Shown: positions 16,216 through 61,617 of the stretch, piece by piece | Layout of the letters: every line of letters begins with the position of its first letter | Position numbering within the stretch: the first letter of the stretch is position 1 | Assembly: GCA_023248155.1 (NCBI GenBank) | Contig: JAHFFE010000001.1 | Location: 212,873 to 276,872, forward strand | DNA length: 64,000 nt | Reading direction: 5' to 3' | Origin: Candidatus Omnitrophota bacterium | GTDB taxonomy: Bacteria > Omnitrophota > Gorgyraeia > 1-14-0-20-64-10 | Notes under the pieces: generated by a model | What the model saw: only the letters and a program-made list of their open reading frames with translations | Told to the model about the DNA's origin: nothing | Databases searched by the model: none | Translations under genes and position numbers: made by a program

Positions 16216-17595
16216 CTAAGCCACAACTCTGATGGCGACAAAACTAATCTCAGTGGTGGTGCTATCGAAATCATTGGTGACCACGCCATTGGGGTAAGGC
16301 CACAGGTCGCAATCGCTACCCCCGACCACGGACCAGGCTCCCACGAGATGCCAGCCCTCGTCGGCGTTACATTCAATACCATCGAGCGTATTACCGAAAC
16401 CGTTAAAAACTGAACCGGCAGGAGCAGCTACATTGTTCAGCGGAAGGAAGGGAGTAGTGCCCGCCGGAGCGGAAATAATACGAATCGGCCGAGTGCCGCC
16501 GCTGCTTCTAAACCCCTGCGCGAATTCGATCCGCGGCCCTCCTGCCAGTGCAACATAAGCGCCGCCGCTTTGAGACACCATAATCTGGTCCGTTGTGGAA
16601 TTGTAGTAAAGCCGGCCTGTATTGTTAACGCTGACCGAGGGATCAGCCGCCAAGCCGGGCAGTTGGATAGCCCCATCTTGAGTAAGCCGCATTCGTTCCG
16701 TGGAGGCGTTGGCGCCGGCTGCTGTTGTTGAAAAGATCAGCATGGCGGGCGTGGAAGCGGCCGTCCAATTCGCCGTTGCCTGCGCGCTGATTTGCGCTCC
16801 CGGGGCGAACCCCGCGCCGGTAAATCCAAAGAAGCCCACTTCCCCAAGAAGATCGTTGTTCAACACCGGTTGGCGGAACGCGCCTCCGGGAAAGTTTCCA
16901 CGCTCCCGCATCAGCGATAACCGGGCTCCCTGGTTGGCCGTGTCTGATTCCGCGTGAATCGACAAATTCGTCGTTTGCCCGAACGGACCCACGGCCACCA
17001 ATTGCGCCGCAGGTTCCAGAGGAAACGCCGTTCCAATGCTCAGATTGCCGCCGGTAATCGCTAAACTATCGTTGCCGGTCATTTGGATCCGCATATCGAA
17101 GTCGGTCGGCGCGTCGTTGGCAAAATCAATGTAGGGATTCCCGCCAAATGTCTCCGAACGAAGTTCAATCGCGGTGTTCTGATCGGAAGGGCCCCGAATC
17201 TGAACATAGTTCGCCGATCCAGCCGCCTGCCTGACAAACAAGTCTCCGGCTATATCCAGGCTTATCGTCCCTCCCGCACCCGGCAGAAATAGAGCCTGCG
17301 ATGCTTGGCCGGCGACACCCTGCACTTGCAGCAGCGTCAGGGGGTTTGTTGGCGCGTTATTCCCAAACCCGGGACCAATCCCCAAACTCGTCTGGATCAA
17401 TGCCTGGCCGTTGGCCAGCGTCGTGTTCAGATAAGCGTTGCCGACCGTCAAACTGGTAACATGTTCGTTGCCGCCAGACGTCGGGTAATAAGTGACGATC
17501 TCCGTAGTTTCCGCCCAGGCGTATCCAACAAAAGTTCCGATGAAGAAGAGAAAAAGAAGAACGCTTTTATTTTTCCAGAGAGGTTTAATTTTCAC
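16216..17595 (-). CDS. Secreted fibre-like protein, paralog family member (type-A N-terminal module)
   Basis: A GTG start at 17595 (SD AGGAG 8 nt upstream) gives VKIKPLWKNKSVLLFLFFIGTFVGYAWA|ETTEIVTYYPTSGGNEHVTSLTVGNAYLNTTLANGQALIQTSLGIGPGF..., the shared family N-terminus; also carries the DLFVRQAAGS...NPYIDFANDAPTDFDMRIQ module shared with 32375 and 39817. Confidence 0.85.
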   Translation of the reverse strand: MKIKPLWKNKSVLLFLFFIGTFVGYAWAETTEIVTYYPTSGGNEHVTSLTVGNAYLNTTLANGQALIQTSLGIGPGFGNNAPTNPLTLLQVQGVAGQASQALFLPGAGGTISLDIAGDLFVRQAAGSANYVQIRGPSDQNTAIELRSETFGGNPYIDFANDAPTDFDMRIQMTGNDSLAITGGNLSIGTAFPLEPAAQLVAVGPFGQTTNLSIHAESDTANQGARLSLMRERGNFPGGAFRQPVLNNDLLGEVGFFGFTGAGFAPGAQISAQATANWTAASTPAMLIFSTTAAGANASTERMRLTQDGAIQLPGLAADPSVSVNNTGRLYYNSTTDQIMVSQSGGAYVALAGGPRIEFAQGFRSSGGTRPIRIISAPAGTTPFLPLNNVAAPAGSVFNGFGNTLDGIECNADEGWHLVGAWSVVGGSDCDLWPYPNGVVTNDFDSTTTEISFVAIRVVA

Positions 17596-32374: not shown

Positions 32375-34069
32375 ATGAAGCACAGTGTCGTTATTCCTCT
32401 GCTTGTCCTTGGAATTTTCGCCAACTATGCCTGGGCGGAAACCATCGAACTGGTCACTTATTATCCGACATCATCGAATGCCGGCGATCAACATCTCACT
32501 AGTTTAACCGTCGGCAATGCTTATCTAAACACGACACTGGCCGCCGGGCAGGCCTTGATCCAGGCCAGTTTGGGGATTGGTCCCGGGTTTGCGAATAACG
32601 AGCCGGCGGCTCCGACGATGCTGCAAGTGCAGGGTGTCGATGCTCAGGATTCAACAGCTCTATTTTTACCCGGCGCTGGAGGAACGATGAGCGTGGGGAT
32701 TGGCACAACGCCGGTTCTTGGAAGCGCTCTGGATGTTACCGGCGGAGACTTGTTTGTCCGGCAGACGGCCGGATCTGGAAACCATGTTCGGATCCGGGCT
32801 CCCTCCGATGCGAATACGGCCATTGAACTGCGCTCGGAAACGGCCGGCGGAAATCCGTACATTGATTTTGCTAATGACGCGGCAACCGATTTTGATATGC
32901 GCATTCAGTTAACCGGCAACGATGAGTTGCGCATTGACGGCGGGGCTCTTCAGGTGCGTCGGGAAGGGGGAGTCGATCAAACCGGCCAGCTGGCCCGGTA
33001 CACAAATGACGCGCAGCCGACCTCGCTATCTCTGCTGAAGGGCAGGAACACAGCAGCGGTCCCTTTCCGTCCTTCCCTTAATGATGGGTTGGGAATGATT
33101 CGTTTTCAGGGGGTTAATGTGGTTGGGCAGAATTATGACGGGGCCACGATTCAGGCTATTGCGTCGGCGAACTGGACCAATGCATCCGCGCCGGCCGATA
33201 TGGTTTTTTCCACCACGCCGTCTGGCGCCAACGGATCCGCGGAACGGATGCGGATTACGGATGACGGCCGAGTTTTGATTGGAACAACGGTTGTTCCCCC
33301 GACCGCGCCGACTACGCTGCTTGTGGCCCGGCGCGATGCCGATGAAATGGTGATGATGCGTGTCGAAAATCAGAATAATTCCGCGAACGCCGCCGCCCGC
33401 GTGTTTGCGGTTTCCCAGCAGGCCGCCACGCCAATCTCAATTGGAATGGATGCCTTCTCCCAGAATTTTAACACGACCACTTCATTAGGTGCTGCTGTTC
33501 CTGGGAATACGCTAATTGCTACCTTTGCCACTTTTGGGGCGATGGCTGCCAACCTGGGCAACCTGTTTATCGCGTCACGCGGACCCAACCAACGGATTGC
33601 ATTCCATACAGGAAATCTTGCTGTTGATGCGACCACCGAACGAATGCGGATTACCAACACCGGTCTTGTCGGGATTAATATCACAAATCCTACCTTCCGT
33701 TTACAATTACCCAACCTCGCTGTTGATTCAACGGGGCGCGGGCGCGCGAACGCATGGACAACCTACTCCTCCATTCGATGGAAAGAAAACATTACCTCAA
33801 TTGACCACCCCCTGGATAAGATTCAGGAACTTCGCGGTGTTTATTTTAATTGGAAAAAAGAACAAGGAGGCGTCCGGGATATTGGATTAATTGCCGAAGA
33901 AGTTGGCAAAATAATTCCGGAGGTTGTTTCTTATGAAGAGAACGGTAAAGATGCCAGTGGTATTACCTATGACCGATTGGTGGCTCTTTTAGTAGAGGGA
34001 ATCAAAGAGCTCAAGGTTGAGAATGATGCACTGAAGAAAAGAATTGATGATTTGGAGAAAAAATCATGA
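32375..34069 (+). CDS. Secreted fibre-like protein, paralog family (type-A N-term) with C-terminal intramolecular-chaperone (peptidase S74, endosialidase-chaperone-like) domain
   Basis: Signal peptide + AETIELVTYYPTS; C-terminus SSIRWKENITSIDHPLDKIQELRGVYFNWKKEQ...IGLIAEEV...YDRLVALLVEGIKELK...coiled coil matches the IMC/S74 domain of phage tail spikes. Confidence 0.85.
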   Translation: MKHSVVIPLLVLGIFANYAWAETIELVTYYPTSSNAGDQHLTSLTVGNAYLNTTLAAGQALIQASLGIGPGFANNEPAAPTMLQVQGVDAQDSTALFLPGAGGTMSVGIGTTPVLGSALDVTGGDLFVRQTAGSGNHVRIRAPSDANTAIELRSETAGGNPYIDFANDAATDFDMRIQLTGNDELRIDGGALQVRREGGVDQTGQLARYTNDAQPTSLSLLKGRNTAAVPFRPSLNDGLGMIRFQGVNVVGQNYDGATIQAIASANWTNASAPADMVFSTTPSGANGSAERMRITDDGRVLIGTTVVPPTAPTTLLVARRDADEMVMMRVENQNNSANAAARVFAVSQQAATPISIGMDAFSQNFNTTTSLGAAVPGNTLIATFATFGAMAANLGNLFIASRGPNQRIAFHTGNLAVDATTERMRITNTGLVGINITNPTFRLQLPNLAVDSTGRGRANAWTTYSSIRWKENITSIDHPLDKIQELRGVYFNWKKEQGGVRDIGLIAEEVGKIIPEVVSYEENGKDASGITYDRLVALLVEGIKELKVENDALKKRIDDLEKKS

Positions 34070-35433
34070 AGCGCGCAATTTTGTTGTTCACCGTTTTAGG
34101 GCTTGTTTCTAGTATCGCCTGGGCGGAAACCACAGAAATTGTTACCTATTATCCGACTACCGGCGGTAATAACGAACATTTAAACGATTTAACGGTAGGG
34201 CCGGGCTTTTTGGGAGAAAACCCCGACCCTGGCGAAGTGCTGATTGAAACGCGGCTTGGAATCGGAACTAATAATCCGCAGGAACAGATTCAGATCACGG
34301 GCAATTTAAGGCTTCCTGCCACCACCGCCGCGGGAGGTGTTCCTTCCGGCGGTGTTATTTTTTCTAATACAAACAGGTTTATTCACAATTTTGGGAGCGG
34401 CAATTTTTTCGCGGGGACCAACGCAGGCAATTTCACGCTGACGGGTTCTTCGAATGTTGGGATAGGCACTAACGCGATGCAGAGCCTGACGAACGGAATT
34501 CAGAATGTCGCCGTGGGACCTCGCGCCATGGAGAGCACGACCAGCGGGCAGAGGAATTCCGCGTTTGGCATGGAGAGTCTGAATAATAATACGACGGGCG
34601 GTTTGAACACAGCGCTGGGGCATAATACGCTTTTTTTTAATCAGACCGGATTTGATAACACCGCGGTAGGCTATCAGGCTTTGCTGAACACGACGGGCAG
34701 CGATAACGTGGCGGTGGGCCAAAACGCCGGATCGAATTTGTTGGCGAACGCGAACACGACCGGGTCGGGCAATACGTTTATAGGGACCCGATCGGGTTCC
34801 GGGGTGGCCGCGCAATTAACCAACGCGACCGCGCTTGGATTTGAAGCATTGGTCTCGGCCAGCAACGCGCTGGTGCTGGGCGGAACAGGCGCCAACGCGG
34901 TCAATGTGGGGATTGGCACGGAAACGCCGGCTCAGCGGCTTCATGTCGTGGGAACCGTGCAAATCGTAGATGGGACCCAGGCGAACGGAAGAGTGCTAAC
35001 CTCTGACGCCAACGGCGTAGCCAGCTGGCAGGCAGCCACTTCAGTGCCTGTTATCGCAAATCCTACATTGGCCGCACCGGTCTGGGTTCGGGTCGGGAAT
35101 AATATCCTTTTCGGGAACCAGGATCATGAATTCATGACCCGGTTCACGTTTGCCACCGCGGGAGGTGTCCGCCGCGTGCGGCTTACGGTGACGGCTCGAA
35201 ATGCCAACGATCAGCCGCCTGTCGGTACCGTCTTTAATCTGAATTCGCCCACATTCAGGGACGGTTGGGGTGGAAATAACGCGGGACCAGGAGGAGGGTA
35301 TACTCTCAACTGGATTCAGTTTTACACCCAAAATCCAGGAAACGGAAATCAGTTAACCGTCGTCGCTTTTGGAGAGGATGGCAGCAGTGGCTTTGGATCG
35401 ATTAATGCAAACGTTGATGTTTCGTATCAGTAA
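34066..35433 (+). CDS. Secreted fibre-like protein, paralog family (type-B N-term)
   Basis: MKRAILLFTVLGLVSSIAWA|ETTEIVTYYPTTGGNNEHLNDLTVGPGFLGENP...; NTAVG/NTTG repeats; start overlaps the upstream stop (ATGA). Confidence 0.85.
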   Translation: MKRAILLFTVLGLVSSIAWAETTEIVTYYPTTGGNNEHLNDLTVGPGFLGENPDPGEVLIETRLGIGTNNPQEQIQITGNLRLPATTAAGGVPSGGVIFSNTNRFIHNFGSGNFFAGTNAGNFTLTGSSNVGIGTNAMQSLTNGIQNVAVGPRAMESTTSGQRNSAFGMESLNNNTTGGLNTALGHNTLFFNQTGFDNTAVGYQALLNTTGSDNVAVGQNAGSNLLANANTTGSGNTFIGTRSGSGVAAQLTNATALGFEALVSASNALVLGGTGANAVNVGIGTETPAQRLHVVGTVQIVDGTQANGRVLTSDANGVASWQAATSVPVIANPTLAAPVWVRVGNNILFGNQDHEFMTRFTFATAGGVRRVRLTVTARNANDQPPVGTVFNLNSPTFRDGWGGNNAGPGGGYTLNWIQFYTQNPGNGNQLTVVAFGEDGSSGFGSINANVDVSYQ

Positions 35434-35500
35434 ATAAACGGAATTATTCGATTTGACCAGCGAAAATATATTTTTAGGCATGAAAGGTGAGTAGATTAAA

Positions 35501-36886
35501 GTGAAAGAATTATGGTTGTTTCTGGGTATATTTGGATTACTAATCAGCTCCGTTTGGGCGGAAACCACAGAAATTGTTACCTATTATCCAACCTCTGGCA
35601 GCAACGAACATGCCACCAGTTTGACGGTTGGTAATGATTATCTGAATACCGTGCTGGCCGACGGTCAGGCGTTGATTCAAACCAGTTTGGGGATTGGGAC
35701 CGGGTTTGGAGGTGGTGCGGGTAATTTGCTGGAGGTGCGTGGCGTTTCTGGGGTTACCAGTAATGCTCTGTTTTTAGCAGGCACGGGTATCGGCTCGAAC
35801 ATCCGGGTTGGGATCGGGGTTGCGGTTCCGAATGAGCAGCTGGAGATCTCCGGCAATTTTCGGCTTCCTCCGACGACAGCGGCCACCGGAATTATTTTCT
35901 CGGGCGCCAACCGGTTCATCCACAATTTTGGGACCAACAACTTCTTCGCCGGTGTGAACGCGGGCAATTTCACCCTGACGGGAACTGGAAATGTGGGGAT
36001 TGGCCCGCAAACTCTCCTAAGCCTCACCAGCGGTGTTCGAAATATTGCTATCGGAACGGACGCTCTTTTATCTAATAGAAGTGGAAGTGGAAATGTCGCG
36101 ATTGGCACTGGAACCATCAGTTTTAGCACGCTCGGCAGTGACAATGTCGCTATTGGCCGCGCTGCGTTGGCAAATGTAAGTACCGTGGGCGCTCTGTCCG
36201 GACAGAACAATGTTGCTATGGGTTCCACCGCCCTTGTGTTCAATACCACCGGTTCTGAAAATGTGGCGCTTGGTTTTCAGTCCGGCGTGACGGTCACCCA
36301 GGCCAATGCCAATACGACCGGTTCCAATAATACGTTTGTTGGATTTAATGCCGGTCCTGGAACAGCAACTCAGCTGAACAATGCCACCGCCCTTGGCGCC
36401 AACGCGCTGGTTTCGGCCAGTAACGCGCTGGTGTTGGGCGGCACCGGCGCCAATGCTGTGAATGTGGGGATTGGCACGGAAACGCCGGCTCAGCGGCTTC
36501 ATGTCGTGGGAACCGTGCGGATCGTGGACGGGACCCAGGCGAACGGAAGAGTGCTAACCTCTGACGCCAACGGCGTAGCCAGCTGGCAGGCGTCCGGCGC
36601 TGCGGGATTTCCGGCTCCGGATTACGACAGTGGATGGGTTACTTCCCAAAGCCCGGGCAATACCAAGACATATACGCATAACCTTGGAACATTAGAATAC
36701 ATGGTCTATATAGAAGGAAGAACCGTTTCCGGAGATCATCCCCCAGGCACGATTCATCAAGTGAATAACCCGGGAGGGACTGACGCGTCCTGGTTGGACA
36801 GCAAGAAAACAAATTCAGTCGTTGTGATGCGTCACACGGGAGACACAGACTGGGATGAGACCAGGGTAAGATGCTGGAGATGGTAA
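35501..36886 (+). CDS. Secreted fibre-like protein, paralog family (type-A N-term)
   Basis: GTG start with SD; ...VWA|ETTEIVTYYPTSGSNEHATSLTVGNDYLNTVLADGQALIQTSLGIG; shares a ~170-bp near-identical block with 34066 (NALVLGGTGANAVNVGIGTETPAQRLHVVGTV...). Confidence 0.85.
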   Translation: MKELWLFLGIFGLLISSVWAETTEIVTYYPTSGSNEHATSLTVGNDYLNTVLADGQALIQTSLGIGTGFGGGAGNLLEVRGVSGVTSNALFLAGTGIGSNIRVGIGVAVPNEQLEISGNFRLPPTTAATGIIFSGANRFIHNFGTNNFFAGVNAGNFTLTGTGNVGIGPQTLLSLTSGVRNIAIGTDALLSNRSGSGNVAIGTGTISFSTLGSDNVAIGRAALANVSTVGALSGQNNVAMGSTALVFNTTGSENVALGFQSGVTVTQANANTTGSNNTFVGFNAGPGTATQLNNATALGANALVSASNALVLGGTGANAVNVGIGTETPAQRLHVVGTVRIVDGTQANGRVLTSDANGVASWQASGAAGFPAPDYDSGWVTSQSPGNTKTYTHNLGTLEYMVYIEGRTVSGDHPPGTIHQVNNPGGTDASWLDSKKTNSVVVMRHTGDTDWDETRVRCWRW

Positions 36887-39816: not shown

Positions 39817-41364
39817 ATGAAGGTAAACGCTAGGTTTAGTGCCGCTGTTCCCGCCATCATCCTTCTCGTCTCAGTTATTTTTACCGGCATTGCCTGGGCC
39901 GAAACTGTTGAGTTAGTGACTTATTATCCAACATCGGCAAATAGCGGCGACCAGCATCTAACCAGTTTAACGGTGGGCAACGATTATTTGGCTACCACAC
40001 TGGCCAATGGCCAGGCATTGATCCAGACCAGCTTGGGGATTGGAACCGGGTTTGCCAACAACGAACCGGCGGCTCCGACGGTTTTGGAAGTACGCGGAGT
40101 GGCCGGTGATGCATCGCAGGCTCTGTTTCTGCCGGGTGCCGGCGGTACGATGAGCGTGGTGATCGGCCGGGACGGGGCGCCGGGGGCGGGAATCCCCGGC
40201 TCCGGTTTGTCGGTGGTCTCCACCAATGACGGCGTAGACATACGCGGGATAAGTGTTTTGCATTCCAGTAACGGTATCCAGGGAGGCATCCTAAATCTCC
40301 TTAAAAGCCGGGCGGCCGGTGCGGTGGTGCAGGCCGGGGATTATGCGGGCGGCGTGGGTTTCTGGTTTTTCAACAACGGCGAGGGGGGCATTTCCGAATC
40401 CGGATACACGCAGTCCGCGGCTATCTGGAGCGCCGTCAACAACGCGACTCCCGGGTCCGAAGCGGGGCATCTCGAGTTCTACACGACGAACGCCGGCGTG
40501 TCGTCGGAGAAGATACGGATCGCCGCGAACGGCAACGTGGGGATTGGAACGGCGGCACCCGGACAAACATTAACCGTTAATGGCACTCTGGGTATCTTGG
40601 AAGGAGGCGCCAATCCAACCGACCACACGATTTTTCAGGGAGGCACCCAGACAGGCGATATTACATACTCTCTCCCGGCGGCCCAGGGAGCTGCCGACAC
40701 CGTTCTTGCAAATAATGGGGCCGGTGTTCTCTCGTGGAGTGCTTCGGCGGGAGGAGGTGTTCCAAACACCGTCGTTGTTTTCAATGCTTCGGGAAACTGG
40801 ACGGCTCCTGCTGGAGTGACAAGAATTAATGTCCAGGTTTGGGGCGGCGGCGGCGGTGGCGGTGGAGCCACTAGTTGTTCGGGTTACGGCAGCGGCGGGG
40901 GCGGCGGCGGTTACGCCGAATCCATTCTTGCGGTTACACCGGGGACAACCTATACCGTTACGGTGGGTGCCGGAGGAACCGGAGGCGCTAGTATCGCGGG
41001 TACCGCCGGAGGCACATCGTTTTTTAATACCGCCGCGATCGTTTCGGCGACTGGCGGTGCTGGAGGACTAAGAGACTGCGAAGCCACGGCCGTCAACTCT
41101 ATTGGGGGAAATGGTCTAGGCACCATCACCATCACGGGCGCTTCCGGAGACATGGGCGGGAACACGAGCAGCTCTGTTCCAAACGGAGGCGATTCTCCTC
41201 TGGGCGGTAGTGGAGGGGATGGAGGTGCTAATAGCGGAACCCCGGCGCAGGGAAATGGTCGCGCAGGCATTATTCCTGGCGGTGGTGGCGGCGGTGCGGG
41301 CGGCACGGGCACAAGTGGTATAGGCGGCAATGGAGCACACGGAAGAGTAGTGATAAGGTTCTGA
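39817..41364 (+). CDS. Secreted fibre-like protein, paralog family (type-A N-term) with Gly-rich C-terminal region
   Basis: MKVNARFSAAVPAIILLVSVIFTGIAWA|ETVELVTYYPTSANSGDQHLTSLTVGNDYL...; C-term VWGGGGGGGGATSCSGYGSGGGGGGY...TVGAGGTGGAS. Confidence 0.85.
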   Translation: MKVNARFSAAVPAIILLVSVIFTGIAWAETVELVTYYPTSANSGDQHLTSLTVGNDYLATTLANGQALIQTSLGIGTGFANNEPAAPTVLEVRGVAGDASQALFLPGAGGTMSVVIGRDGAPGAGIPGSGLSVVSTNDGVDIRGISVLHSSNGIQGGILNLLKSRAAGAVVQAGDYAGGVGFWFFNNGEGGISESGYTQSAAIWSAVNNATPGSEAGHLEFYTTNAGVSSEKIRIAANGNVGIGTAAPGQTLTVNGTLGILEGGANPTDHTIFQGGTQTGDITYSLPAAQGAADTVLANNGAGVLSWSASAGGGVPNTVVVFNASGNWTAPAGVTRINVQVWGGGGGGGGATSCSGYGSGGGGGGYAESILAVTPGTTYTVTVGAGGTGGASIAGTAGGTSFFNTAAIVSATGGAGGLRDCEATAVNSIGGNGLGTITITGASGDMGGNTSSSVPNGGDSPLGGSGGDGGANSGTPAQGNGRAGIIPGGGGGGAGGTGTSGIGGNGAHGRVVIRF

Positions 41365-42785: not shown

Positions 42786-44300
42786 ATGAGCGATAAAAAA
42801 TCTTTCACAAAAATAGTCCTTGGGTTTTTAGCAATAGGGCTTGTTGCCGGCATCGCCTGGGCCGAAACGACCGAAATTGTGACCTATTATCCTACCAGCG
42901 GCGGTGGCGGCGCCGATCCGCAGGTAAACTCGATCAGGGTCGGAAACGGCTATGCAGGAACTGCTGCTCCGGGGAATGGAATAGCGCGCATCGAAACATC
43001 TCTCGGGATCGGTCTGGCGGGACTACCCACTCAACAGATTGAAATTACCGGTAATTTTCAGTTGCCGGCCACGACGGCTCCGGGAGGTATCCTTGCCGGG
43101 GGCGCTATTTTGTCCAATGGCAACAGGTTCATTCACAATTTCGGATCGAACAATTTTTTTGCGGGTGTGAACGCCGGTAACTTTACCATGACCGGTGGTA
43201 CGAACACGGCGGTTGGGGCTACTGCTTTGCGTGCCAACACTACCGGTGGCGGTAATACGGCTGTCGGTCAAAGTGCTTTGGCGAGCAATACCACCGGTCC
43301 TTCAAATACCGCTATCGGAATTGCTGCGCTCACTGCCAATATTAGCGGCGGCAACAATGTTGCTATTGGACGGACGGCGCTTTTCCTTAATAATAATGGT
43401 TCCTTCAACACCGCGGTCGGGAACCAGTCTCTTGCAAACAACACGGTTTCCGACAATACAGCCATTGGTTTTGGAGCTATGCAACTCAATACGACCGGCA
43501 CTGACAACACCGCCGTGGGGTTCTCTGCTCTGCTGAGTAATACCACGGGCGTCACCAATGCCGCCGTCGGCATGAACACCCTTCTCAACAACACCATTGG
43601 CGGCGGCAACGCCGCGCTGGGGACCAGTGCTCTTCTCAGCAACACCACCGGCATAAATAACACGGCGGTCGGCAGTGCTGCAGGTGGTATTAACACCACC
43701 GGTTCAAACAATGTTTTTATTGGGCAAATAGCACAACCAACTGTCGGGAACCTTACTAATGCCATTGCCATCGGTTCCAACGCGCAAGTTGGCGCCAGCA
43801 ACAGTATGGTTCTGGGTGGAACCGGCGCCAATGCGGTCAATGTCGGTATTGCTGTGACTACGCCGAGAACGCCGGCTCCGAACGCGGCCGCCGGCAACCT
43901 GGATGTAAATGATGTTTGGGTAAGAAGTTTGAACGCCGGGGCGGGAGCCTGGCTGAGTCAGCAGGCCGGAGGTGGAGCTCAAATGGTGACGGGCAGTTAT
44001 GTCGGTAATGGAATCAATGCCCGTCGAACCATAGCGGTTGCCGGCGTTACGGCGGCCACGCCGATTCGTTTCTTGACGGTAATTGGAAATTGGCGCAATA
44101 CGACTTCTGCGATGACCAATATTAAAACAGCGACCATGGCAGGAACGCTGAATTATCATTGGGCGCCTGCGCTGGCAACCTATGAGCTTACCGTCGGCGG
44201 TCCCGCGATTCAATTTGAGGCGACCGGGTTTAGTTTTCTGCATGATGCGGGCACCATCAATCAGAATGGGCAGACGTACCACTACATCGCCTATTTGTAA
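42786..44300 (+). CDS. Secreted fibre-like protein, paralog family (type-B N-term)
   Basis: ...GIAWA|ETTEIVTYYPTSGGGGADPQVNSIRVGNGY...; long run of NTAVG/NTTG 14-15-aa repeats. Confidence 0.85.
   Translation: MSDKKSFTKIVLGFLAIGLVAGIAWAETTEIVTYYPTSGGGGADPQVNSIRVGNGYAGTAAPGNGIARIETSLGIGLAGLPTQQIEITGNFQLPATTAPGGILAGGAILSNGNRFIHNFGSNNFFAGVNAGNFTMTGGTNTAVGATALRANTTGGGNTAVGQSALASNTTGPSNTAIGIAALTANISGGNNVAIGRTALFLNNNGSFNTAVGNQSLANNTVSDNTAIGFGAMQLNTTGTDNTAVGFSALLSNTTGVTNAAVGMNTLLNNTIGGGNAALGTSALLSNTTGINNTAVGSAAGGINTTGSNNVFIGQIAQPTVGNLTNAIAIGSNAQVGASNSMVLGGTGANAVNVGIAVTTPRTPAPNAAAGNLDVNDVWVRSLNAGAGAWLSQQAGGGAQMVTGSYVGNGINARRTIAVAGVTAATPIRFLTVIGNWRNTTSAMTNIKTATMAGTLNYHWAPALATYELTVGGPAIQFEATGFSFLHDAGTINQNGQTYHYIAYL

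Positions 44301-47286: not shown

Positions 47287-47287
<1 letters not shown>
46121..47287 (+). CDS. bioF: 8-amino-7-oxononanoate synthase
   Basis: MNELQNELDELDRQGLRR...; PLP Lys region GTLSKAIGSVGGY; start overlaps the SDR stop (ATGA). Confidence 0.9.
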
Positions 47288-50746
<3,459 letters not shown>

Positions 50747-50778: not shown

Positions 50779-52377
50779 ATGAAAAATCCAATTGTAAAAA
50801 ATAAAACTAACCGCATCTTATTTACGCTGTTGTTTTTGGGATTAATCGCCACGAGTGTATCTGCCGATACAGTTGAGCTGGTGACTTATTATCCGACCGA
50901 GTCCAACGGCCAGTTTGACCGCAACCATGCCCGGCGTTCGACAGTGGGGTCAGCCTATTCACCCGATACGATTACCGATGCCGCTGTCCCCGATGGGACG
51001 CTGCTGGTTTCGGAGAGGCTTGGAATTGGGATAACCGCGCCGCAATTCCCACTCGATATTTACCGCAGTGCTGATGAGGCCTATCTGCGCGTGATGGGCG
51101 TTGGCAACGGTTTGGCCCCGGAAAACTTTGCTGGGATCGAGTTGGACAGCGATCTTCCGGTCAACGGTGTTCCCGATTACAAATGGCAGCTGGTGCATAA
51201 ACGGGGCGGCGCCGGCGGGGAGAACGATTTCCACATTACTTTTTACGATCCAACTATCCCGGCCTGGCGGGTATGGCTGGCTATTCGGAAAAACGGCAAT
51301 GTCGGCATTGGCAACGTACCGTTCCCGGATGAAAAATTGCAGGTGAACGGCAATATCCGGATGCCTAACACCTTTGTCGACGGACTGGGTGTGGCCACGG
51401 CCGGCGTGATCTACAGCGACACGACGCGGTTTATTCATAACTTCGGTTCGAACAATACATTCATGGGTGTGGAATCCGGCAACTTTACGACGGCCGGAAC
51501 CGGGTTTAATTCCGGCTATGGCCAGCGTACACTGATGAACGTGACCACCGGGTTTTTTAACGCGGCGGTGGGTGCTGGATCACTCACTTCGAATACCGTT
51601 GGCTCCGACAATACAGCGGTTGGCACCAGTTCGCTAACCTCCAACAACACCGGTAATAATAATGTGGCGGTCGGTTATCAGGCGCTGTTGAGCAATATCA
51701 GCGGCAGCAACAATGTGGCGGTTGGAACTCAGGCCGGCGGCAACGCCGGGGGCAACCAGAACATTTTTATCGGTGTTCAGGCCGGTTTGAACGAAGCCGG
51801 CAACGACAAGCTGTACATTGAAAACTCCAGCTCAGCCAACCCATTAATCTACGGTGATTTTTCCACCGATACGGTCCGGATCAACAATCATTTAGGAATA
51901 GGCACCAGTGTCGTGGGTGGCACGAATGCGCTGGCGATTGCCAATGGAATCGAGCCGGCTACCAACCCTGCCGGCCAGATTCAGCTGTTTGCCAAAAATG
52001 TTTCCGGCACATCAAAACTGTGGGTGATTGATGGAGCCGGTTTTTCGTCAACGATTTCACCGCATAACTTCTCACTGATTCCATCGGGCGCCAGCGAGCC
52101 GCTGGCGTGGGCATTTTATTCGGAACGCGCCGGCCATGCCGTTAATGTCGATATGCTGCGCGCCATCCGCGTCCTTGAAAATTTATCCGGCGAGCAGCTG
52201 GTTTATCTAAAAAATCTTCGCACCCATCAAGACGAAAGTTCCCGTTTAACCAGCCCGGTTGTTCCCTCGCTTGAAAAAGAAATTCAACAGCTGAAAGCCG
52301 ACAACGAAAAACTGCAGAAGCAGGTTGATGACCTTAAAAGATCAGTCGACGCGTTGGCGCGAAACTCCCGCCGGTAA
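50779..52377 (+). CDS. Secreted fibre-like protein, divergent paralog with C-terminal coiled coil
   Basis: ...SVSA|DTVELVTYYPTESNGQ...; NRFIHNFGSNN and NTAVG/NTTG repeats; C-term EKEIQQLKADNEKLQKQVDDLKRSVDAL. Confidence 0.8.
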   Translation: MKNPIVKNKTNRILFTLLFLGLIATSVSADTVELVTYYPTESNGQFDRNHARRSTVGSAYSPDTITDAAVPDGTLLVSERLGIGITAPQFPLDIYRSADEAYLRVMGVGNGLAPENFAGIELDSDLPVNGVPDYKWQLVHKRGGAGGENDFHITFYDPTIPAWRVWLAIRKNGNVGIGNVPFPDEKLQVNGNIRMPNTFVDGLGVATAGVIYSDTTRFIHNFGSNNTFMGVESGNFTTAGTGFNSGYGQRTLMNVTTGFFNAAVGAGSLTSNTVGSDNTAVGTSSLTSNNTGNNNVAVGYQALLSNISGSNNVAVGTQAGGNAGGNQNIFIGVQAGLNEAGNDKLYIENSSSANPLIYGDFSTDTVRINNHLGIGTSVVGGTNALAIANGIEPATNPAGQIQLFAKNVSGTSKLWVIDGAGFSSTISPHNFSLIPSGASEPLAWAFYSERAGHAVNVDMLRAIRVLENLSGEQLVYLKNLRTHQDESSRLTSPVVPSLEKEIQQLKADNEKLQKQVDDLKRSVDALARNSRR

Positions 52378-53085: not shown

Positions 53086-53106
53086 CAAAAATAACCAATT
53101 TTATGG

Positions 53107-53112
53107 CATACT
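53107..53112 (+). promoter_or_regulatory. CATACT -10-like element 7 nt before ATG 53120 (leaderless-type); shares ATACTT(A)CCTTATAT with the 1524 element
   Basis: GCATACTTCCTTAT-ATG compared with GTATACTTACCTTATATCG-ATG at 1523. Confidence 0.35.
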
Positions 53113-53119
53113 TCCTTAT

Positions 53120-57335: not shown

Positions 57336-58844
57336 ATGAGTCAGATTTCCCGGAAAGTTATCTATCCAGCTATCTTCTTCGCGATTTTTTTGGCCGCGTC
57401 GACTGTTTTCGCGGAGACCGTGGAGATTGTCACCTATTTTCCGACTACCGGCGGCAATAACGAACATGTGAATGATTTAACGGTAGGGCCGGGTTTTTTG
57501 GGCGAAAACCCCGCCAATGGCGTAGCACTGATTGAAACCCGGCTCGGGATTGGCACCAATGATCCACAGCAACAGCTGCATATCACGGGCAACCTAAGGA
57601 TTCCATCGACCACCGCTGTGGGCGGAGTTCCTTCCGGCGGTGTTATTTTTTCTGACACAACCCGGTTTATTCACCGTTTTGGGAGCGGCAATTTCTTCGC
57701 GGGGACCGCCGCGGGCAATTTCACGCTGACCGGTTCCTCGAATATCGGGATAGGCACGAATGCGATGCAGAGCCTGACGAACGGAATTCAAAATGTCGCG
57801 GTGGGCTCTCGCGCCATGGAACTTAATACCAGCGGCCAGAGGAATTCGGCGTTTGGGATGGAGAGTCTGAATAATAATACGACGGGCGGTTTGAACACGG
57901 CGCTGGGGCATAATACGCTTTTTTTTAATCAGACCGGATTTAATAACACCGCGGTAGGCTATCAGGCTTTGCTGAACACGACGGGAAGCGATAACGTGGC
58001 TGTGGGCCAAAACGCCGGATCGGCTCTGTTGGCGAATGCGAACACGACCGGATCAGGCAATACGTTTATAGGAACTCGATCGGGTTCCGGGGTGGCCGCG
58101 CAATTGACCAACGCGACCGCGCTTGGATTTGAAGCGCTGGTCTCGGCCAGCAACGCGCTGGTGCTGGGCGGCACTGGCGCCAACGCGGTGAGCGTAGGGA
58201 TTGGAACTGAAACACCGCAGGCGACATTGGATGTCACTTCCGATGGCGGAACGATTCTGGTGCCTCGAAAAAGCACGGCCGGTGATCCGGCCGTAGGCGT
58301 CAACGGCATGATCTACTACAACGCCAACGCGCAGCAGTTCCGTTTTCATCAAAATGGGGCATGGCAGTCTCTTGATGGAGGATGGAGGCTGATTTTCCGG
58401 GATGACTTTCAAGCCAATGCCAACGGATGGGCTCCAGCAACGAGGACCAATATTGGAGGGGCCACGATCCTGGGTGGGTTTAGTACCGCAGGCAACGGAA
58501 CGACTTTAACAAGGAATTTTGATCTTACCGGTATTGCCCACACTCAGATTAAAGTTGAACTGGATTATTATGCCATTGACAGCTGGGACGGTGAATTTGG
58601 GTTTGTCTTCGCCGCGGGCGCGGCGGGTAGTTCCAGAAATATATGGGCCGAACGAATCAATCAGTTCGACCCCGGACGGATCAACTTCGGTGGGGCAGCC
58701 AACCGGACAGACGGTGTTTACCATGCTCTGTTAACCGGCTCGCATTCCACTAATACGCTGACTGTATCCGCGGGATGCACCTTGGATCAGGCGAGCAACG
58801 ACGAATCCTTTGGAATAGACAATGTGGAGGTTTGGGTCCGATAG
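57336..58844 (+). CDS. Secreted fibre-like protein, paralog family (type-B N-term)
   Basis: ...TVFA|ETVEIVTYFPTTGGNNEHVNDLTVGPGFLGENP; ~85% aa identity over the first ~290 aa with the 34066 product, divergent C-terminus. Confidence 0.85.
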   Translation: MSQISRKVIYPAIFFAIFLAASTVFAETVEIVTYFPTTGGNNEHVNDLTVGPGFLGENPANGVALIETRLGIGTNDPQQQLHITGNLRIPSTTAVGGVPSGGVIFSDTTRFIHRFGSGNFFAGTAAGNFTLTGSSNIGIGTNAMQSLTNGIQNVAVGSRAMELNTSGQRNSAFGMESLNNNTTGGLNTALGHNTLFFNQTGFNNTAVGYQALLNTTGSDNVAVGQNAGSALLANANTTGSGNTFIGTRSGSGVAAQLTNATALGFEALVSASNALVLGGTGANAVSVGIGTETPQATLDVTSDGGTILVPRKSTAGDPAVGVNGMIYYNANAQQFRFHQNGAWQSLDGGWRLIFRDDFQANANGWAPATRTNIGGATILGGFSTAGNGTTLTRNFDLTGIAHTQIKVELDYYAIDSWDGEFGFVFAAGAAGSSRNIWAERINQFDPGRINFGGAANRTDGVYHALLTGSHSTNTLTVSAGCTLDQASNDESFGIDNVEVWVR

Positions 58845-58865: not shown

Positions 58866-60773
58866 ATGGCAAAAACTCGCGCCGGTAAATATCCTGTTCT
58901 TTTTGTTGTTGCTTTGATCGGTTTAATTGCCGGGTATGCGTTCGCGGAAACCGTTGAATTGGTGACTTATTACCCGAGCAGCGGCGGAGGCGGCACCGAC
59001 CCGCAAGTGAATTCGATTCGGGTGGGAAGCGGCTACGCCGGGAGCGCGGTTCCGGCCAACGGAGAGGTGCTTATCGAAGGGAACATCGAGTTGCCTGCTA
59101 CGACCGCGACCGCGGGTGTTATCTTCTCTGGCCCCAACCGGTTCATCCATAATTTCGGAACCGACAATTTCTTTGCTGGAGTTAACGCCGGCAATTTCAC
59201 AATGACGGGTGCCGATAATGTCGGGGTTGGGGCGAATTCACTTTTTTCAAACACCACAGGCCGCGACAACACCGCGGTCGGTTTCAACTCGCTAAGGGCG
59301 AATACCATAGGAGCCCAAAACACAGCCATAGGGCAAGAGTCTCTGTTGGCAAACACCGTTGGTACTGGCAACACGGCGGTAGGACAGGAGTCTCTTAAGG
59401 CAAATACGACCGGAAATGCCAACACGGCGATGGGAGAAAATTCTCTGGCGGACAACACGGGCGGAAACAACAACACAGCGGCAGGAGATCATTCTCTGCA
59501 GCGAAACAGGACCGGAAGCGGTAACACGGCGGTAGGACAGGAATCTCTGCAGGAGAACACAACCGGTAGCAACAACACGGCGGTTGGAGTCAGCGCCCTC
59601 AACGCCAACACGACTGCCATTGCGAATACCGCCGTGGGAAGTCGCGCGTTGATGGCCAACACGACCGGCACCGGCAACACGGCGCTGGGGGTTGGCGCTT
59701 TGCAAGCCAACACGCTTGGGAATAATAATACGGCGCTGGGGGTTAACACTTTAGAAGCTAACACGACTGCCATTGCGAATACCGCCGTGGGAAGTCGCGC
59801 GTTGATGGCCAACACGACCGGTACCGTTAACACGGCCGTGGGGGTCGGCGCTTTGGAAATCAACACGACCGGCAGCTGGAACACCGCGGTGGGGGTTAAT
59901 GCGCTTACGAGTAACAATCCAACCCTGGCGACGAATGGGTTCCGGAATACGGCCGTCGGTTCGAGCGCCCTGCAAGACAACACGACCGGTTATCAGAACA
60001 CCGCGGTTGGGTTTAACGTTTTGCCGGCCACCACGACCGGTTATCAGAATACCGCGGTCGGGTCTGGGGCTATGCCGGCCACTACAACCGGTTTTCGGAA
60101 CATCGCCATTGGCAACAACGCCATGCCTAACAATGTGGGAGGCGCTTCGAATATTGCTATTGGCGATTCCTCACTTTCGGGTAATGTGGGCGGCAGCCTC
60201 AATACAGTGGTTGGGCATGAAGCCGGAGTGACTGTAAACAATCTTACTCATGCCACCGCCATTGGCGCCGACTCGAGGGTGTCTGCCAGCAATTGTATTG
60301 TTCTTGGTACAAACACAGATACCGTTTGTATTGGTTTGAATGCGCGTACCAATGCCACTTATAGACTCCAGGTCAACGGTATTGCCGCTAAGAATGGGGG
60401 AGGAAGCTGGACGAACTCCACTTCCGATGCCAGGCTTAAAGAAAACATCAGGCCTTTTAAAGATGGCTTGACTGTGCTGCAAAAGATTAATCCCGTCACC
60501 TATCAATTAAACGGCAAAGGCGGTTTACCGAAGGGCGGGGAAGACATTGGTGTTATTGCGCAGGATGTGAAAGATGTGATTCCTTATACGATTGGGACTT
60601 TCAAAGCGAAATTAAATCCTGATGATAGAGAAGAAACCGAGCTTTATAACTATAATGATACCGCATTGACCTATGTTTTGATCAATGCGGTCAAAGAACT
60701 CAAGACGGAAAACGACCAGCTGCGCCAAGATTTGAACCAGCTGCGGGAAGAAGTTGCCCAGCTTAAAAAATAA
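58866..60773 (+). CDS. Secreted fibre-like protein, paralog family (type-B N-term) with long NTAVG-repeat shaft and C-terminal intramolecular-chaperone (peptidase S74-like) domain
   Basis: ...GYAFA|ETVELVTYYPSSGGGGTDPQVNSIRVG; >25 tandem ~14-aa NTAVG/NTTG repeats; C-term SDARLKENIRPFKDGLTVLQKINPVTYQLNG...IGVIAQDVKDVIPY...coiled coil. Confidence 0.85.
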   Translation: MAKTRAGKYPVLFVVALIGLIAGYAFAETVELVTYYPSSGGGGTDPQVNSIRVGSGYAGSAVPANGEVLIEGNIELPATTATAGVIFSGPNRFIHNFGTDNFFAGVNAGNFTMTGADNVGVGANSLFSNTTGRDNTAVGFNSLRANTIGAQNTAIGQESLLANTVGTGNTAVGQESLKANTTGNANTAMGENSLADNTGGNNNTAAGDHSLQRNRTGSGNTAVGQESLQENTTGSNNTAVGVSALNANTTAIANTAVGSRALMANTTGTGNTALGVGALQANTLGNNNTALGVNTLEANTTAIANTAVGSRALMANTTGTVNTAVGVGALEINTTGSWNTAVGVNALTSNNPTLATNGFRNTAVGSSALQDNTTGYQNTAVGFNVLPATTTGYQNTAVGSGAMPATTTGFRNIAIGNNAMPNNVGGASNIAIGDSSLSGNVGGSLNTVVGHEAGVTVNNLTHATAIGADSRVSASNCIVLGTNTDTVCIGLNARTNATYRLQVNGIAAKNGGGSWTNSTSDARLKENIRPFKDGLTVLQKINPVTYQLNGKGGLPKGGEDIGVIAQDVKDVIPYTIGTFKAKLNPDDREETELYNYNDTALTYVLINAVKELKTENDQLRQDLNQLREEVAQLKK

Positions 60774-61617
60774 ATTCAAGGATATCGTCGAAGCGCTGCG
60801 GCTGGAGCATACCATTTTCGCTTTGCCATTTGCCTATGTGGGTGTTTGGGCCGCTGCCGAGGGGAATCCGTCGTGGCGCGTCGTCGGGTGGGTCACATTG
60901 GCGATGGTCGGCGCGCGCACGGCCGGCATGGCACTCAACCGTCTCATCGACCTTCCGATTGACCGAAAAAACCCGCGCACGAAAAACTGGCCGGTTCCAT
61001 CGGGCCGCGTGAAACCATCACTATTAATTTTATTAACAACTGCGGCACTCGCAATTTTCCTCGTGGCCGCCTGGAAGCTCAATCCACTCTGCGCGAAGCT
61101 CTCGCCAGTGGCGCTGGTACTTCTGGTGCTCTACCCGACGATGAAGCGGTTTACATGGGCCTGCCATTTCTGGCTGGGACTGGTTTTGGCATCGGCTCCC
61201 GCGGCCGGATGGCTGGCCGTAACCGGAAAAATGGAGCTGGAATTGATCCCGCTTTTTCTGGGCGTCTTTTTTTGGGTGTCAGGATTTGATATTCTTTACG
61301 CGCTGCTGGATATTGACTTCGACCGACGGGAAGGGGTATACTCGATTCCTGGGCGTTTTGGTCTTTCGCCCGCCTTGTGGATCTCCCGAAGTGCCCATTT
61401 AATGGCGCTATTGGCATTTGGATGGTTTGGGATCGTTATGGAATTTCGAGGCTGGTTTTGGGCAGGCTGGCTGTTGATCGCCGGGCTTTTGACTTATGAG
61501 CACCGGCTGGTAGGCCCGGGCCGTCTGGAAAAAATCAACAAGGCGTTTTTTACGGTCAATGGTTGGGTCAGCGTTCTTTTCTTTTTATTCACCTGGCTGG
61601 AGTTGACGATGCAATGA
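60754..61617 (+). CDS. UbiA-family prenyltransferase (menaquinone/4-hydroxybenzoate polyprenyltransferase, MqnP-like)
   Basis: TTG start; NRLIDLPIDRKNPRTKNWPVPSGRV Asp-rich motif; 8-9 TM helices; overlaps the 3' end of the upstream fibre gene. Confidence 0.85.
   Translation: MPSLKNKFKDIVEALRLEHTIFALPFAYVGVWAAAEGNPSWRVVGWVTLAMVGARTAGMALNRLIDLPIDRKNPRTKNWPVPSGRVKPSLLILLTTAALAIFLVAAWKLNPLCAKLSPVALVLLVLYPTMKRFTWACHFWLGLVLASAPAAGWLAVTGKMELELIPLFLGVFFWVSGFDILYALLDIDFDRREGVYSIPGRFGLSPALWISRSAHLMALLAFGWFGIVMEFRGWFWAGWLLIAGLLTYEHRLVGPGRLEKINKAFFTVNGWVSVLFFLFTWLELTMQ

Follow-up and report, generated by a model that had tools for sequence, protein, structure and literature searches.

The C-terminal domain of the protein encoded at 32375..34069 is probably a genuine S74 chaperone and autoprotease closing a surface fibre of an Omnitrophota-type bacterium, a fibre that is exported by the Sec pathway, is derived from a phage tail fibre and is one of ten paralogues, with S74 or non-S74 tips, corresponding to the MAT fibres (mosaic adhesive trimers) known from Bdellovibrio. 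All ten genes are in the window, which here means the whole 64,000-nucleotide stretch of DNA that was analysed.

S74 fibre gene

The features of the gene are as follows.

32375..34069, forward strand: S74 fibre ORF, 564 aa; stop codon 34067-34069
32375..32437, forward strand: Sec signal peptide, aa 1-21, MKHSVVIPLLVLGIFANYAWA; predicted cleavage A-x-A / E22
32438..32674, forward strand: conserved family head, aa 22-~100, from paralogue alignments
32954..33739, forward strand: fibre body, aa 194-455, from homology to Bdellovibrio MAT beta-helix modules and phage tail-fibre families
33677..33766, forward strand: pre-cleavage segment, aa 435-464, NITNPTFRLQLPNLAVDSTGRGRANAWTTY
33764..33769, forward strand: scissile bond Tyr464/Ser465, predicted from alignment with phage chaperones
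33767..34066, forward strand: Peptidase S74 / intramolecular chaperone domain, aa 465-564 (Ser465-Ser564)
33767-33769 and 33782-33784, forward strand: dyad codons of Ser465 and Lys470
33968-34063, forward strand: terminal helix of the S74 domain, aa 532-563

The signal peptide has a K/R n-region, a hydrophobic core (12-mer Kyte-Doolittle value of 2.97) and Ala at positions -3 and -1. The part specific to the head is ETIELVTYYPTS... (aa 22-~43), and the rest of the head is the first copy of a generic fibre repeat (LGIG..P...L.V.G). The segment of aa 435-464 is predicted to be the C-terminus of the mature fibre.

C-terminal S74 domain

The first-pass annotation had assigned the last ~100 residues of this protein to the S74 chaperone, and profile, fold and phage-genome comparisons agreed on this assignment. 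PF13884 (Peptidase_S74) was matched at aa 465-518 with an E value of 5.6e-14 and a score of 52.6 bits (gathering cutoff 22). The start given for the domain, nt 33760, was one base out of frame; the domain proper begins at nt 33767. The homologous domain that had been noticed at the end of the 58866 protein was also recovered, with a PF13884 match at aa 520-573 (E value of 3.8e-15; 56.4 bits). The features of this second gene are as follows.

58866..60773, forward strand: second S74 fibre gene, 635 aa, with signal peptide, head, repeat body and S74 domain
59352-60080, forward strand: repeat body, 51-nt tandem array encoding 17-residue repeats
60423-60770, forward strand: S74 domain, aa 520-635, divergent copy
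60423-60425 and 60438-60440, forward strand: dyad codons of Ser520 and Lys525

A profile built from 29 homologous C-termini matched every solved S74/ICA class in the PDB: phage S16 gp37 (6.5e-20), the tail fibre 8jov (2e-19), the MyRF ICA (9.8e-15), T5 pb1 (7.5e-13) and the GA-1 appendage chaperone (1.9e-5). In this comparison, the Ser465 column is aligned with the scissile/first residue of the T5 pb1, S16 gp37 and GA-1 chaperones. A tblastn search with the domain detected tail-fibre genes in 946 phage records, with identities of 36-47%.

The fold was examined in AF2 models of the two S74 proteins, both of which are monomers. In each model, the domain consists of a small alpha/beta unit that leads into a long helix at the C-terminus (aa 532-563 and aa 598-634, respectively). 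Over aa 470-564, the 32375 model has pLDDT values above 90; in the 58866 model, the values over aa 520-635 are 71-96. The top ranks of the Foldseek searches with both domains were occupied by the structures of the MyRF ICA, T5 pb1 with its chaperone, the K1F chaperone and the GA-1 chaperone. The target-normalised TM-score (TMt) to the MyRF ICA was 0.60-0.63 for the 32375 domain. For the 58866 domain, the corresponding value was 0.66, together with a probability of 1.0 for K1F (3gw6) and a TMt of 0.57 for GA-1 (3gud).

The Ser-Lys dyad, which the first-pass annotation had proposed as a check, is intact in both proteins, as S465-S-I-R-W-K470 and S520-D-A-R-L-K525. In the alignment of S74 homologues, Ser, Arg at +3 and Lys at +5 are nearly invariant, distant phyla included, and of the 125 sequences retrieved, 90 carry the S-x4-K pattern. 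The homologues show two flavours of the dyad, SDxRxK and SSxRWK. The 32375 protein is of the latter flavour: directly after the catalytic Ser it has a second Ser, at a position that is usually taken by Asp. To our knowledge, no S74 domain of the SSxRWK flavour has been tested experimentally. On these sequence and model grounds, the C-terminal domain of the 32375 protein was confirmed as a genuine S74 intramolecular chaperone. Self-cleavage, trimerisation and adhesion of the fibre are putative.

Fibre body and tip cassette

In a phmmer search against the PDB, the body of the 32375 protein matched three Bdellovibrio fibres: Bd2133 (8ond) with an E value of 1.4e-9 (aa 287-455), Bd1334 (8oml) with 1.2e-5 (aa 200-313) and Bd2439 (8ol4) with 8.8e-5 (aa 194-307). 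Foldseek matched the protein to the MAT structures 8oml, 8onf, 8ond and 8onc. In addition, PHROG tail-fibre families were matched with E values as low as 1.2e-30. The body was modelled with pLDDT values of 86-95 at aa 230-300 and below 50 at aa 320-400. The fibres had been described as trimeric and beta-helical. Homology supports this description, as aa 194-455 match regions of Bd2133, Bd1334 and Bd2439 for which trimeric beta-helices have been solved; the body would thus be a trimeric beta-helix. The S74 domain would be located directly C-terminal to it, a position read from homology only.

The body of the 58866 protein is modelled as a beta-solenoid at aa 150-310 (pLDDT 80-92), and this protein matched the tail spike protein family phrog_4636 with an E value of 8.9e-73.

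The 30-residue pre-cleavage segment, together with an SSxRWK-type S74 unit, was found on unrelated bodies in the homologues P0004, P0010, P0016 and P0022. The GC content at third codon positions (GC3) is 37% in the S74 cassette versus 57% in the rest of the 32375 gene, and this drop suggests transfer of the cassette. Judging from the sequences, the S74 unit acts like an exchangeable cassette, one of many that can form the tip. The cassette occurs on unrelated bodies in other phyla; P0022 comes from a Zixibacteria MAG.

Ten paralogues and their tips

The two S74 genes belong to a family of ten head-bearing paralogues, not remarked in the first-pass annotation, which occupies 24% of the window DNA. 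The other eight members are as follows.

16216..17595, reverse strand: paralogue P0003 in the lptF-ahcY slot, 459 aa, non-S74 tip, found by head-motif scan
34066..35433, forward strand: paralogue 2 in the sucD-pmbA slot, 455 aa, non-S74 tip, head motif at aa 21, phrog_4636 at 5.8e-21
35501..36886, forward strand: paralogue 3 in the sucD-pmbA slot, 461 aa, non-S74 tip
39817..41364, forward strand: paralogue P0018, 515 aa, glycine-rich tip (Gly_rich_2, PF21722, 7.5e-15), phrog_863 at 2.3e-34
42786..44300, forward strand: paralogue, 504 aa, repeat body, non-S74 tip
50779..52377, forward strand: paralogue, 532 aa, dyad-less tail with a coiled coil at the end
57336..58844, forward strand: paralogue, 502 aa, non-S74 tip, adjoining the second S74 gene on its upstream side
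61614..63116, forward strand: paralogue, about 500 aa, non-S74 tip, downstream of ubiA, found by motif scan

The start of the 34066 gene overlaps the stop codon of the 32375 gene (ATGA). All ten paralogues begin with a Sec-type signal, called by sequence rules (K/R n-region, hydrophobic core and [AV]-x-A before E/D), and continue into an 'ETxELVTYYP' head. The head is followed by phage-fibre-like bodies and ten unrelated tips, and the S74 tip is present in two of the ten only. The first 50 mature residues are on average 55% identical among the paralogues, versus 19.6% for the tips. Furthermore, paralogue bodies are 88-92% identical at the nucleotide level despite their unrelated tips; for example, the body of the 61614 gene is 88-89% identical to those of the 34066 and 57336 genes.

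The tail of the 50779 protein was considered as a degenerate S74 domain. This was rejected: the tail has no PF13884 match, and the dyad columns are not conserved. In hhalign with the S74 profile, only the last 32 columns, corresponding to the terminal helix, are aligned.

The diversity of the tips bears on the function of the fibres. They might be exported trimers with a role other than adhesion to prey or host: structural (surface layer or sheath), defensive (decoys for phages or predators) or enzymatic (glycan depolymerases). Pfam detected no recognisable lectin or enzyme domain in the tips, Gly_rich_2 of the 39817 protein excepted, and the tip of the 34066 protein gave no Pfam match at all; this absence would suit a non-adhesive function. 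In addition, the beta-solenoid of the 58866 protein shows a weak likeness to tailspike depolymerase folds in Foldseek, with E values of 0.05-2, which are not significant. However, diverse tips on a constant head, a variable number of genes per slot and recent swapping of tips are the signature of a receptor-recognition repertoire. The homologous fibres of Bdellovibrio bind prey glycans (PMC10769870). A non-adhesive role is therefore considered unlikely, and the fibres are better regarded as putative adhesins.

Putative maturation mechanism

Maturation of the 32375 fibre could proceed in four steps. The sequence suggests that the precursor would be exported by Sec, and that the cut after A-x-A would expose the conserved ETIELVTYYP head. 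By homology to K1F, T5 pb1, MyRF and Bd3182, three S74 domains would then associate via their long terminal helices and template the preceding triple beta-helix. Only in the correctly assembled trimer, Ser465, activated by Lys470, would cut the Tyr464-Ser465 bond and free the chaperone of ~100 residues; the conservation of the dyad is consistent with this cleavage. The mature fibre (aa 22-464) might finally be attached to the cell by the head, with its tip directed towards the target surface, by analogy with the Bdellovibrio MATs and with the predatory or host-attached lifestyle suspected for Omnitrophota. In T5 pb1, the bond cut is Thr1263-Ser1264 (PMC4690869); Asp1239, plus Arg1250 of the neighbouring chain, are also proposed to take part in catalysis. 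Bd3182 was shown to cleave itself, and the S782A substitution blocks this cleavage (Caulton 2024, PMC10769870).

It should be mentioned that the S74 domain might act as a chaperone or trimerisation module without cleavage, in which case the fibre would keep its helical cap as the non-S74 MATs do. The Ser in place of the usual Asp in the dyad region of the 32375 protein is compatible with such a role. Furthermore, the 50779 protein and the L031-type relatives keep the terminal coiled coil only and have no dyad, which shows that the family tolerates a helical C-terminus without cleavage. On the other hand, the near-invariance of Ser, Arg at +3 and Lys at +5 extends across both flavours and distant phyla and would be difficult to account for if catalysis were not under selection, and all S74 domains tested so far, namely those of K1F, T5 pb1, MyRF and Bd3182, cleave themselves. 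Loss of cleavage in the 32375 protein thus seems improbable, and self-cleavage is the preferred reading. The first-pass annotation had extended proteolytic maturation to these host fibres in general; it can apply to the two S74-tipped members of the ten only, and the other eight have non-S74 tips.

Genomic setting

The neighbours of the fibre genes in the window are genes for citrate synthase, Mdh, SucCD, PmbA/TldD, BioB, UbiD/UbiA, LptFG, MetK and similar proteins, and the other ORFs scanned in the 64 kb belong to housekeeping families or have no family match in Pfam and NCBIfam. The ten fibre genes are distributed among six slots between housekeeping genes, and these slots are conserved in related genomes. 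The same slots hold head-bearing genes in related MAGs, where the flanking proteins are 56-82% identical. At the related loci, the S74 tip was found in 10 of the 31 complete fibre genes, and the number of genes per slot is variable. These neighbours and this synteny, together with the canonical Sec signal with A-x-A, uphold the view that the 32375 gene encodes a cellular protein with a signal peptide. A scan for promoters and terminators around the 32375 operon gave nothing above chance.

All ten paralogues match PHROG families annotated as tail fibre, tailspike or virion-structural protein, with E values down to 8.9e-73. In nine of the ten, no match begins before about residue 83, so that the head remains outside the matched region. 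Only in the 39817 protein does a match overlap the head, namely a weak one to the unannotated family phrog_2295 over aa 29-431.

That the genes encode tail fibres of a prophage, a tailocin or an eCIS, in which S74 would mature a particle fibre instead of a cell-surface fibre, is hardly credible: the PHROG matches, the S74 matches in phage records, the NCBI label of relatives ('tail fiber domain-containing protein') and the S74 domains reported on eCIS tail fibres are outweighed by the lack of capsid, terminase, sheath, tube, baseplate and integrase genes among the ORFs scanned with Pfam and NCBIfam within the 64 kb, the conserved housekeeping slots, the Sec signals on all ten proteins, a feature at odds with the cytoplasmic assembly of phage and eCIS fibres, the replacement of the N-terminal particle-binding region by a lineage-specific head with one weak unannotated PHROG overlap, and the IMG/VR scan, in which no close relative of the fibre was found.

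Conserved head

Among 185,579 species representatives, the ETxELVTYYP head was found in about 10 Omnitrophota-type genomes only. The assignment of the window to an Omnitrophota-type bacterium follows from relatives, namely the protein MDO8729992.1, labelled Omnitrophota, and MAGs labelled Omnitrophota or 'uncultured Planctomycetia'. Full-length matches of the head profile are located at aa ~20-110 of proteins of 320-650 aa; in the exhaustive search, positions 23-70 of the profile also matched repeats in giant proteins. Against the PDB, the matches of the profile were weak (E values of 0.008-0.02) and confined to a generic loop motif in Bd2133 and Bd3182. No mention of the head motif was found in the literature.

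PF26696, a precomputed match on several head-bearing relatives, was considered as a curated model of the head and was set aside; it is missing from the local Pfam and from the literature. Judging by its carrier proteins, PF26696 more likely covers the downstream 'GFLPPRMT...YNT' motif.

As a tentative proposal, which we regard as possible, the head at the signal-peptidase site might be an undescribed, lineage-restricted sorting or anchoring module that mounts the fibres on ultra-small Omnitrophota. The slots might then form an exchange system for tip cassettes, with S74 as a cassette of foreign composition, and set the hosts or prey to which the cells attach.

Comparison with known systems

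Omnitrophota are an uncultured phylum suspected of a predatory or host-dependent life. The ten fibres are concrete candidates for their attachment proteins, and the tips offer a handle on what the cells bind. Phage-derived fibres capped by S74 are the way in which Bdellovibrio recognises its prey, and the window holds a dense and diversified repertoire of such fibres, with ten genes, conserved slots and swapped tips. Knowledge of the S74 domain itself is unchanged by this finding. The arrangement of an S74-tipped cellular fibre is not new either: the MAT fibres of Bdellovibrio, with S74 and non-S74 tips, were described in 2024, and an Omnitrophica S74-type MAT is already listed in Supplementary Table S3 of that work (Caulton 2024, PMC10769870).

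The phage chaperones of the K1F endosialidase CTD (3GW6), T5 pb1 (4UW8), S16 gp37 (6F45) and GA-1 (3GUD) share with the window domains the PF13884 match, the positions of Ser and Lys and the fold. In these proteins the domain follows a triple beta-helix at the C-terminus, as it would in the window protein. The phage fibres differ at the other end: they have no signal peptide, their N-terminus is on the virion and their genes are among phage structural genes, whereas the N-terminus of the window fibres consists of a Sec signal and a bacterial head, and the genes are among housekeeping genes.

The eukaryotic MYRF ICA (7DC3) is a further case of this self-cleaving trimerisation module in a non-viral host and is the best structural match to both window domains (target-normalised TM-scores of 0.60-0.66). 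However, its cleavage frees a transcription factor from the ER membrane, the domain is in the middle of the protein, and it has no role in a fibre or adhesin.

Trimeric autotransporter adhesins of the YadA/UspA1 type are trimeric surface fibres, as the window fibres are presumed to be. In several paralogues, the repeats of the body (N-T-A-V-G...N-T-T-G, 14-17 residues) are similar to the head repeats of these adhesins. Some relatives (P0010 and P0088) combine Pfam matches to UspA1/YadA repeats with S74. The proposed anchor of the window fibres is N-terminal, unlike that of YadA and UspA1, and Pfam scans found a C-terminal YadA-type beta-barrel anchor in none of the paralogues. Membership in the trimeric autotransporter family was rejected because the C-terminal translocator/anchor domain is lacking.

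The closest likeness is to the S74 subgroup of the MATs, such as Bd3182. Both are cellular, with a signal peptide and a conserved N-terminal region common to many paralogues. The body is in either case a trimeric beta-helix of phage-like type, assigned by homology in the window proteins, and the C-terminal domain is S74 with S-x4-K; in both families non-S74 tips are found as well. The 'VG.GT..P...LHV' capping-loop motif also aligns with Bd2133 and Bd3182, at the weak E values given above (0.008-0.02). Several differences are observed. The window proteins have ~450-635 residues, compared with ~1000 in Bdellovibrio. The head of the window proteins is short, with ~22 specific residues and a generic repeat, whereas the Bdellovibrio N-terminal domain is beta-rich and has ~130 residues. 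One S74 copy in the window is of the SSxRWK flavour, not SDxxxK. Finally, the window packs its ten genes into 64 kb, at conserved housekeeping slots.

S74 domain and catalytic dyad

The peptide that the first-pass annotation assigned to a phage-type intramolecular chaperone (S74) is the C-terminus of the 564-aa protein encoded at 32375..34069 on the + strand (the 32375 protein); the start coordinate given for it, 33760, is out of frame. The domain is placed as follows.

Ser465 (nt 33767) to Ser564 (nt 34066), + strand: S74 domain of the 32375 protein

The sole Pfam-A match of this protein is PF13884 (Peptidase_S74, "chaperone of endosialidase"; aa 465-518, E 5.6e-14, 52.6 bits). The 635-aa protein encoded at 58866..60773 (the 58866 protein) likewise ends in an S74 domain, as had been claimed (PF13884, aa 520-573, E 3.8e-15, 56.4 bits). 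Both matches are well above the curated cutoff of 22 bits; therefore, the S74 assignment stands. The earlier observation is confirmed and its interpretation supported: the 32375 protein is probably an S74-type mosaic adhesive trimer (MAT) fibre, a kind of object already known.

The Ser-Lys dyad proposed for checking is present in both proteins, as S465-S-I-R-W-K470 in the 32375 protein and S520-D-A-R-L-K525 in the 58866 protein, and is conserved among homologues. The S-x4-K pattern, which comes in the flavours SDxRxK and SSxRWK, occurs at the expected spacing from the C-terminus in 90 of 125 retrieved sequences. In an alignment of 29 S74 domains, the Ser, Arg+3 and Lys+5 are nearly invariant, together with three more positions (a Gly, an Ala and a Pro). 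The profile of this alignment matches every solved class of S74 domain: phage S16 gp37 (6.5e-20), the tail fibre 8jov (2e-19), the MyRF ICA (9.8e-15), T5 pb1 (7.5e-13) and the GA-1 appendage chaperone (1.9e-5). The catalytic Ser column lines up with S-G-I-E-Y-K in T5 pb1 and with residue 1 of the GA-1 chaperone in its released form. In T5 pb1, the Thr1263-Ser1264 bond is cut; Lys1269 activates Ser1264, and cleavage requires a correct trimer because one Arg is supplied by the neighbouring chain (PMC4690869). AF2 gave confident models for both S74 domains, and the top Foldseek matches of both were the MyRF ICA (TM 0.60-0.66), T5 pb1 with its chaperone, and the K1F and GA-1 chaperones. By tblastn, 946 phage records carry the domain in tail-fibre genes (36-47% identity).

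A family of ten fibre genes

The 32375 and 58866 proteins belong to a ten-member family that had been overlooked. A motif scan found ten ORFs in the window with a common start, namely a Sec-type signal peptide ending in [AV]-x-A, followed by E/D-T-x-E-x-V-T-Y-Y/F-P (the head). They occupy 15.4 kb, or 24% of the window.

16216-17595, - strand: fibre paralogue
32375-36886: fibre paralogues, beginning with the 32375 gene
39817-41364: fibre paralogue
42786-44300: fibre paralogue
50779-52377: fibre paralogue
57336-60773: fibre paralogues, ending with the 58866 gene
61614-63116: fibre paralogue (the 61563 gene)

Mean identity among the paralogues is 55% over the first 50 mature residues and 19.6% over the last 120; the tips are effectively unrelated. 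Only two of the ten end in S74. One tip is a Gly_rich_2 domain, that of the 50779 protein is a coiled coil without the dyad, whose hhalign match to S74 covers the last 32 columns only, and Pfam gives no match for the other six. The 50779 tail (52000-52377) shares with a locus of a related MAG (L031, 6010-7767) the conserved SPH[ND]FS.IP.G.SEPLAWA.HSER...VDML.A.R.LE.L.GEQLVY plus the coiled coil. In tails of this type, which lack the Ser/Lys dyad, the terminal helix alone aligns to S74 (hhalign probability 90%, 32 columns), and they may be a non-cleaving trimerisation cap.

The bodies of the 34066, 57336 and 61563 genes show 88-92% DNA identity over at least 350 nt, yet their tips differ. This indicates a recent event, be it duplication, recombination or gene conversion, in which the tips were replaced.

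34372-34722: near-identical body stretch, 34066 gene
57660-58010: near-identical body stretch, 57336 gene
61923-62273: near-identical body stretch, 61563 gene

All ten paralogues match phage tail-fibre, tailspike or virion-structural PHROGs (E down to 8.9e-73). These matches start at about residue 83 or later in all but the 39817 protein, which weakly matches the unannotated phrog_2295 across aa 29-431; so the signal peptide and head are the non-phage part. Inside the 58866 gene, a tandem array of 51-nt (17-residue) repeats (59352-60080) is modelled as a regular β-solenoid (pLDDT 80-92) and strongly matches phrog_4636, "tail spike protein" (8.9e-73).

Chromosomal setting

The fibre had been described as cellular and signal-peptide-bearing, and its ordinary chromosomal neighbours and Sec-type signal uphold this. 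The window encodes enolase, PtsI, PGI, MetK, AhcY, LptFG, glycogen-debranching enzyme, citrate synthase, Mdh, SucCD, PmbA/TldD, BioB/F/DA, FabG and UbiE/D/A; Pfam and NCBIfam scans across its 64 kb revealed no phage or contractile-injection genes. The 32375 gene begins 76 nt downstream of sucD; its stop and the start of the paralogue that follows overlap. In related MAGs fetched via the head motif, head-bearing genes occupy matching slots, and the flanking proteins show 56-82% identity to those of the window.

sucD-[fibres]-pmbA/tldD: L003, L013, L024
bioDA-[fibre]-ubiE and ubiD-[fibre]: L010, L022, L023
lptFG-[fibre]-ahcY: L001, L004, L033

These Omnitrophota-type MAGs differ in how many fibre genes a slot contains (1-3) and in their tip types. 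Three fibre genes fill the sucD-pmbA slot in the window; L013 has two there, of which the first is S74 as well, and L024 and L003 have a single one.

Three other ORFs (41385-42773, 47287-48684 and 53057-55864) match known families weakly or not at all. The first matches a circularly permuted ATP-grasp below cutoff, and the first two are conserved in synteny beside fibre slots of related MAGs. A giant 1849-aa protein with WD40 β-propeller repeats and an FHA domain (1542-7091) is unrelated to the fibres.

Distribution of the head

Among 185,579 species-representative genomes, ~10 contain the pattern TxE[LI]VTYYP[TSA], at 33 loci altogether. Every one of these genomes is an Omnitrophota-type MAG, and a single (fragmented) genome has as many as nine loci. 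The loci carry 43 head-bearing ORFs; 31 of these are complete, and S74 is the closing domain in 10 of the complete ones. Those relatives that bear a name are all either "Candidatus Omnitrophota" or MAGs under the label "uncultured Planctomycetia"; "tail fiber domain-containing protein" is the name that the NCBI pipeline gives to relatives. An exhaustive head-profile search of 1.84 billion representatives gave 10,463 matches at E<=0.001. Most of them align profile positions 23-70 with a fibre repeat of generic type that occurs in giant proteins, and full-length head matches fall at aa ~20-110 of 320-650-aa proteins. The repeat (…G.VGIGT..P...L.V.G…) is present in 20-40 copies in giant 2,000-6,000-aa public-metagenome proteins (P0126-P0257). 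Omnitrophota are noted for giant ORFs.

No mention of the head motif was found in the literature searched. Six relatives (P0012, P0015, P0038, P0050, P0068 and P0219) have a precomputed match to Pfam PF26696, for which no describing paper was found. This family probably covers the GFLPPRMT...YNT motif downstream of the head, not the head itself.

S74 as a possible exchangeable cassette

The SSxRWK-type S74 domain and the 30 residues preceding it (…LPNxAxxxGRGRANAWTTY) are found on quite different bodies, among them that of a Zixibacteria MAG protein. In the 32375 gene, GC3 is 37% over the S74 segment (33767-34066) vs 57% elsewhere, and the corresponding values for the 58866 gene (60423-60770) are 47% vs 62%; total GC also drops sharply in both segments. 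Neighbouring housekeeping genes have a GC3 of 64-70%. The GC3 drop fits horizontal exchange of S74 as a module, with amino-acid bias (GC2 28-29%) contributing to the drop in composition.

Proposed maturation

The S74 identity, dyad conservation, Sec-type signal, syntenic chromosomal context and mosaic family are established; the phage-fibre-like body is, judged from its sequence, homologous to solved trimeric β-helices. The 32375 protein would be exported by the Sec route and then cleaved before Glu22. Three S74 domains would nucleate the trimer from the C-terminus. Once the trimer is correct, Ser465 and Lys470 would cut the Tyr464-Ser465 bond and release ~100 residues. The mature fibre would comprise aa 22-464, held by the head, and its tip may bind a target surface.

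Comparison with Bdellovibrio MAT fibres

The 21 "mosaic adhesive trimer" fibres that Caulton et al. (2024) described from Bdellovibrio bacteriovorus all have a signal peptide, then a conserved N-terminal domain of ~130 aa, and a shaft that is a trimeric β-helix or coiled coil; S74 (SDxxxK) closes 13 of them, and the other eight have different tips. Bd3182 cleaves itself, and this is abolished by S782A. The fibres are located on the surface, and one binds prey glycans (PMC10769870). The survey of Omnitrophota does not mention these fibres; it makes a case for predatory or host-dependent lifestyles (PMC10066038).

The body of the 32375 protein resembles solved MAT fragments by sequence and by fold. 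It matches Bd2133 (aa 287-455, E 1.4e-9), Bd1334 (E 1.2e-5) and Bd2439 (aa 194-307, 8.8e-5), and aa 194-307 are the counterpart of the solved trimeric β-helix N850-V968 of Bd2439. In Supplementary Table S3 of the MAT study, A0A2H0LB00 (713 aa, from a "Candidatus Omnitrophica bacterium") is entered as an "S74-like" MAT of a predator-associated lineage (PMC10769870). Therefore, the S74-type MAT, and its presence in this phylum, were already on record.
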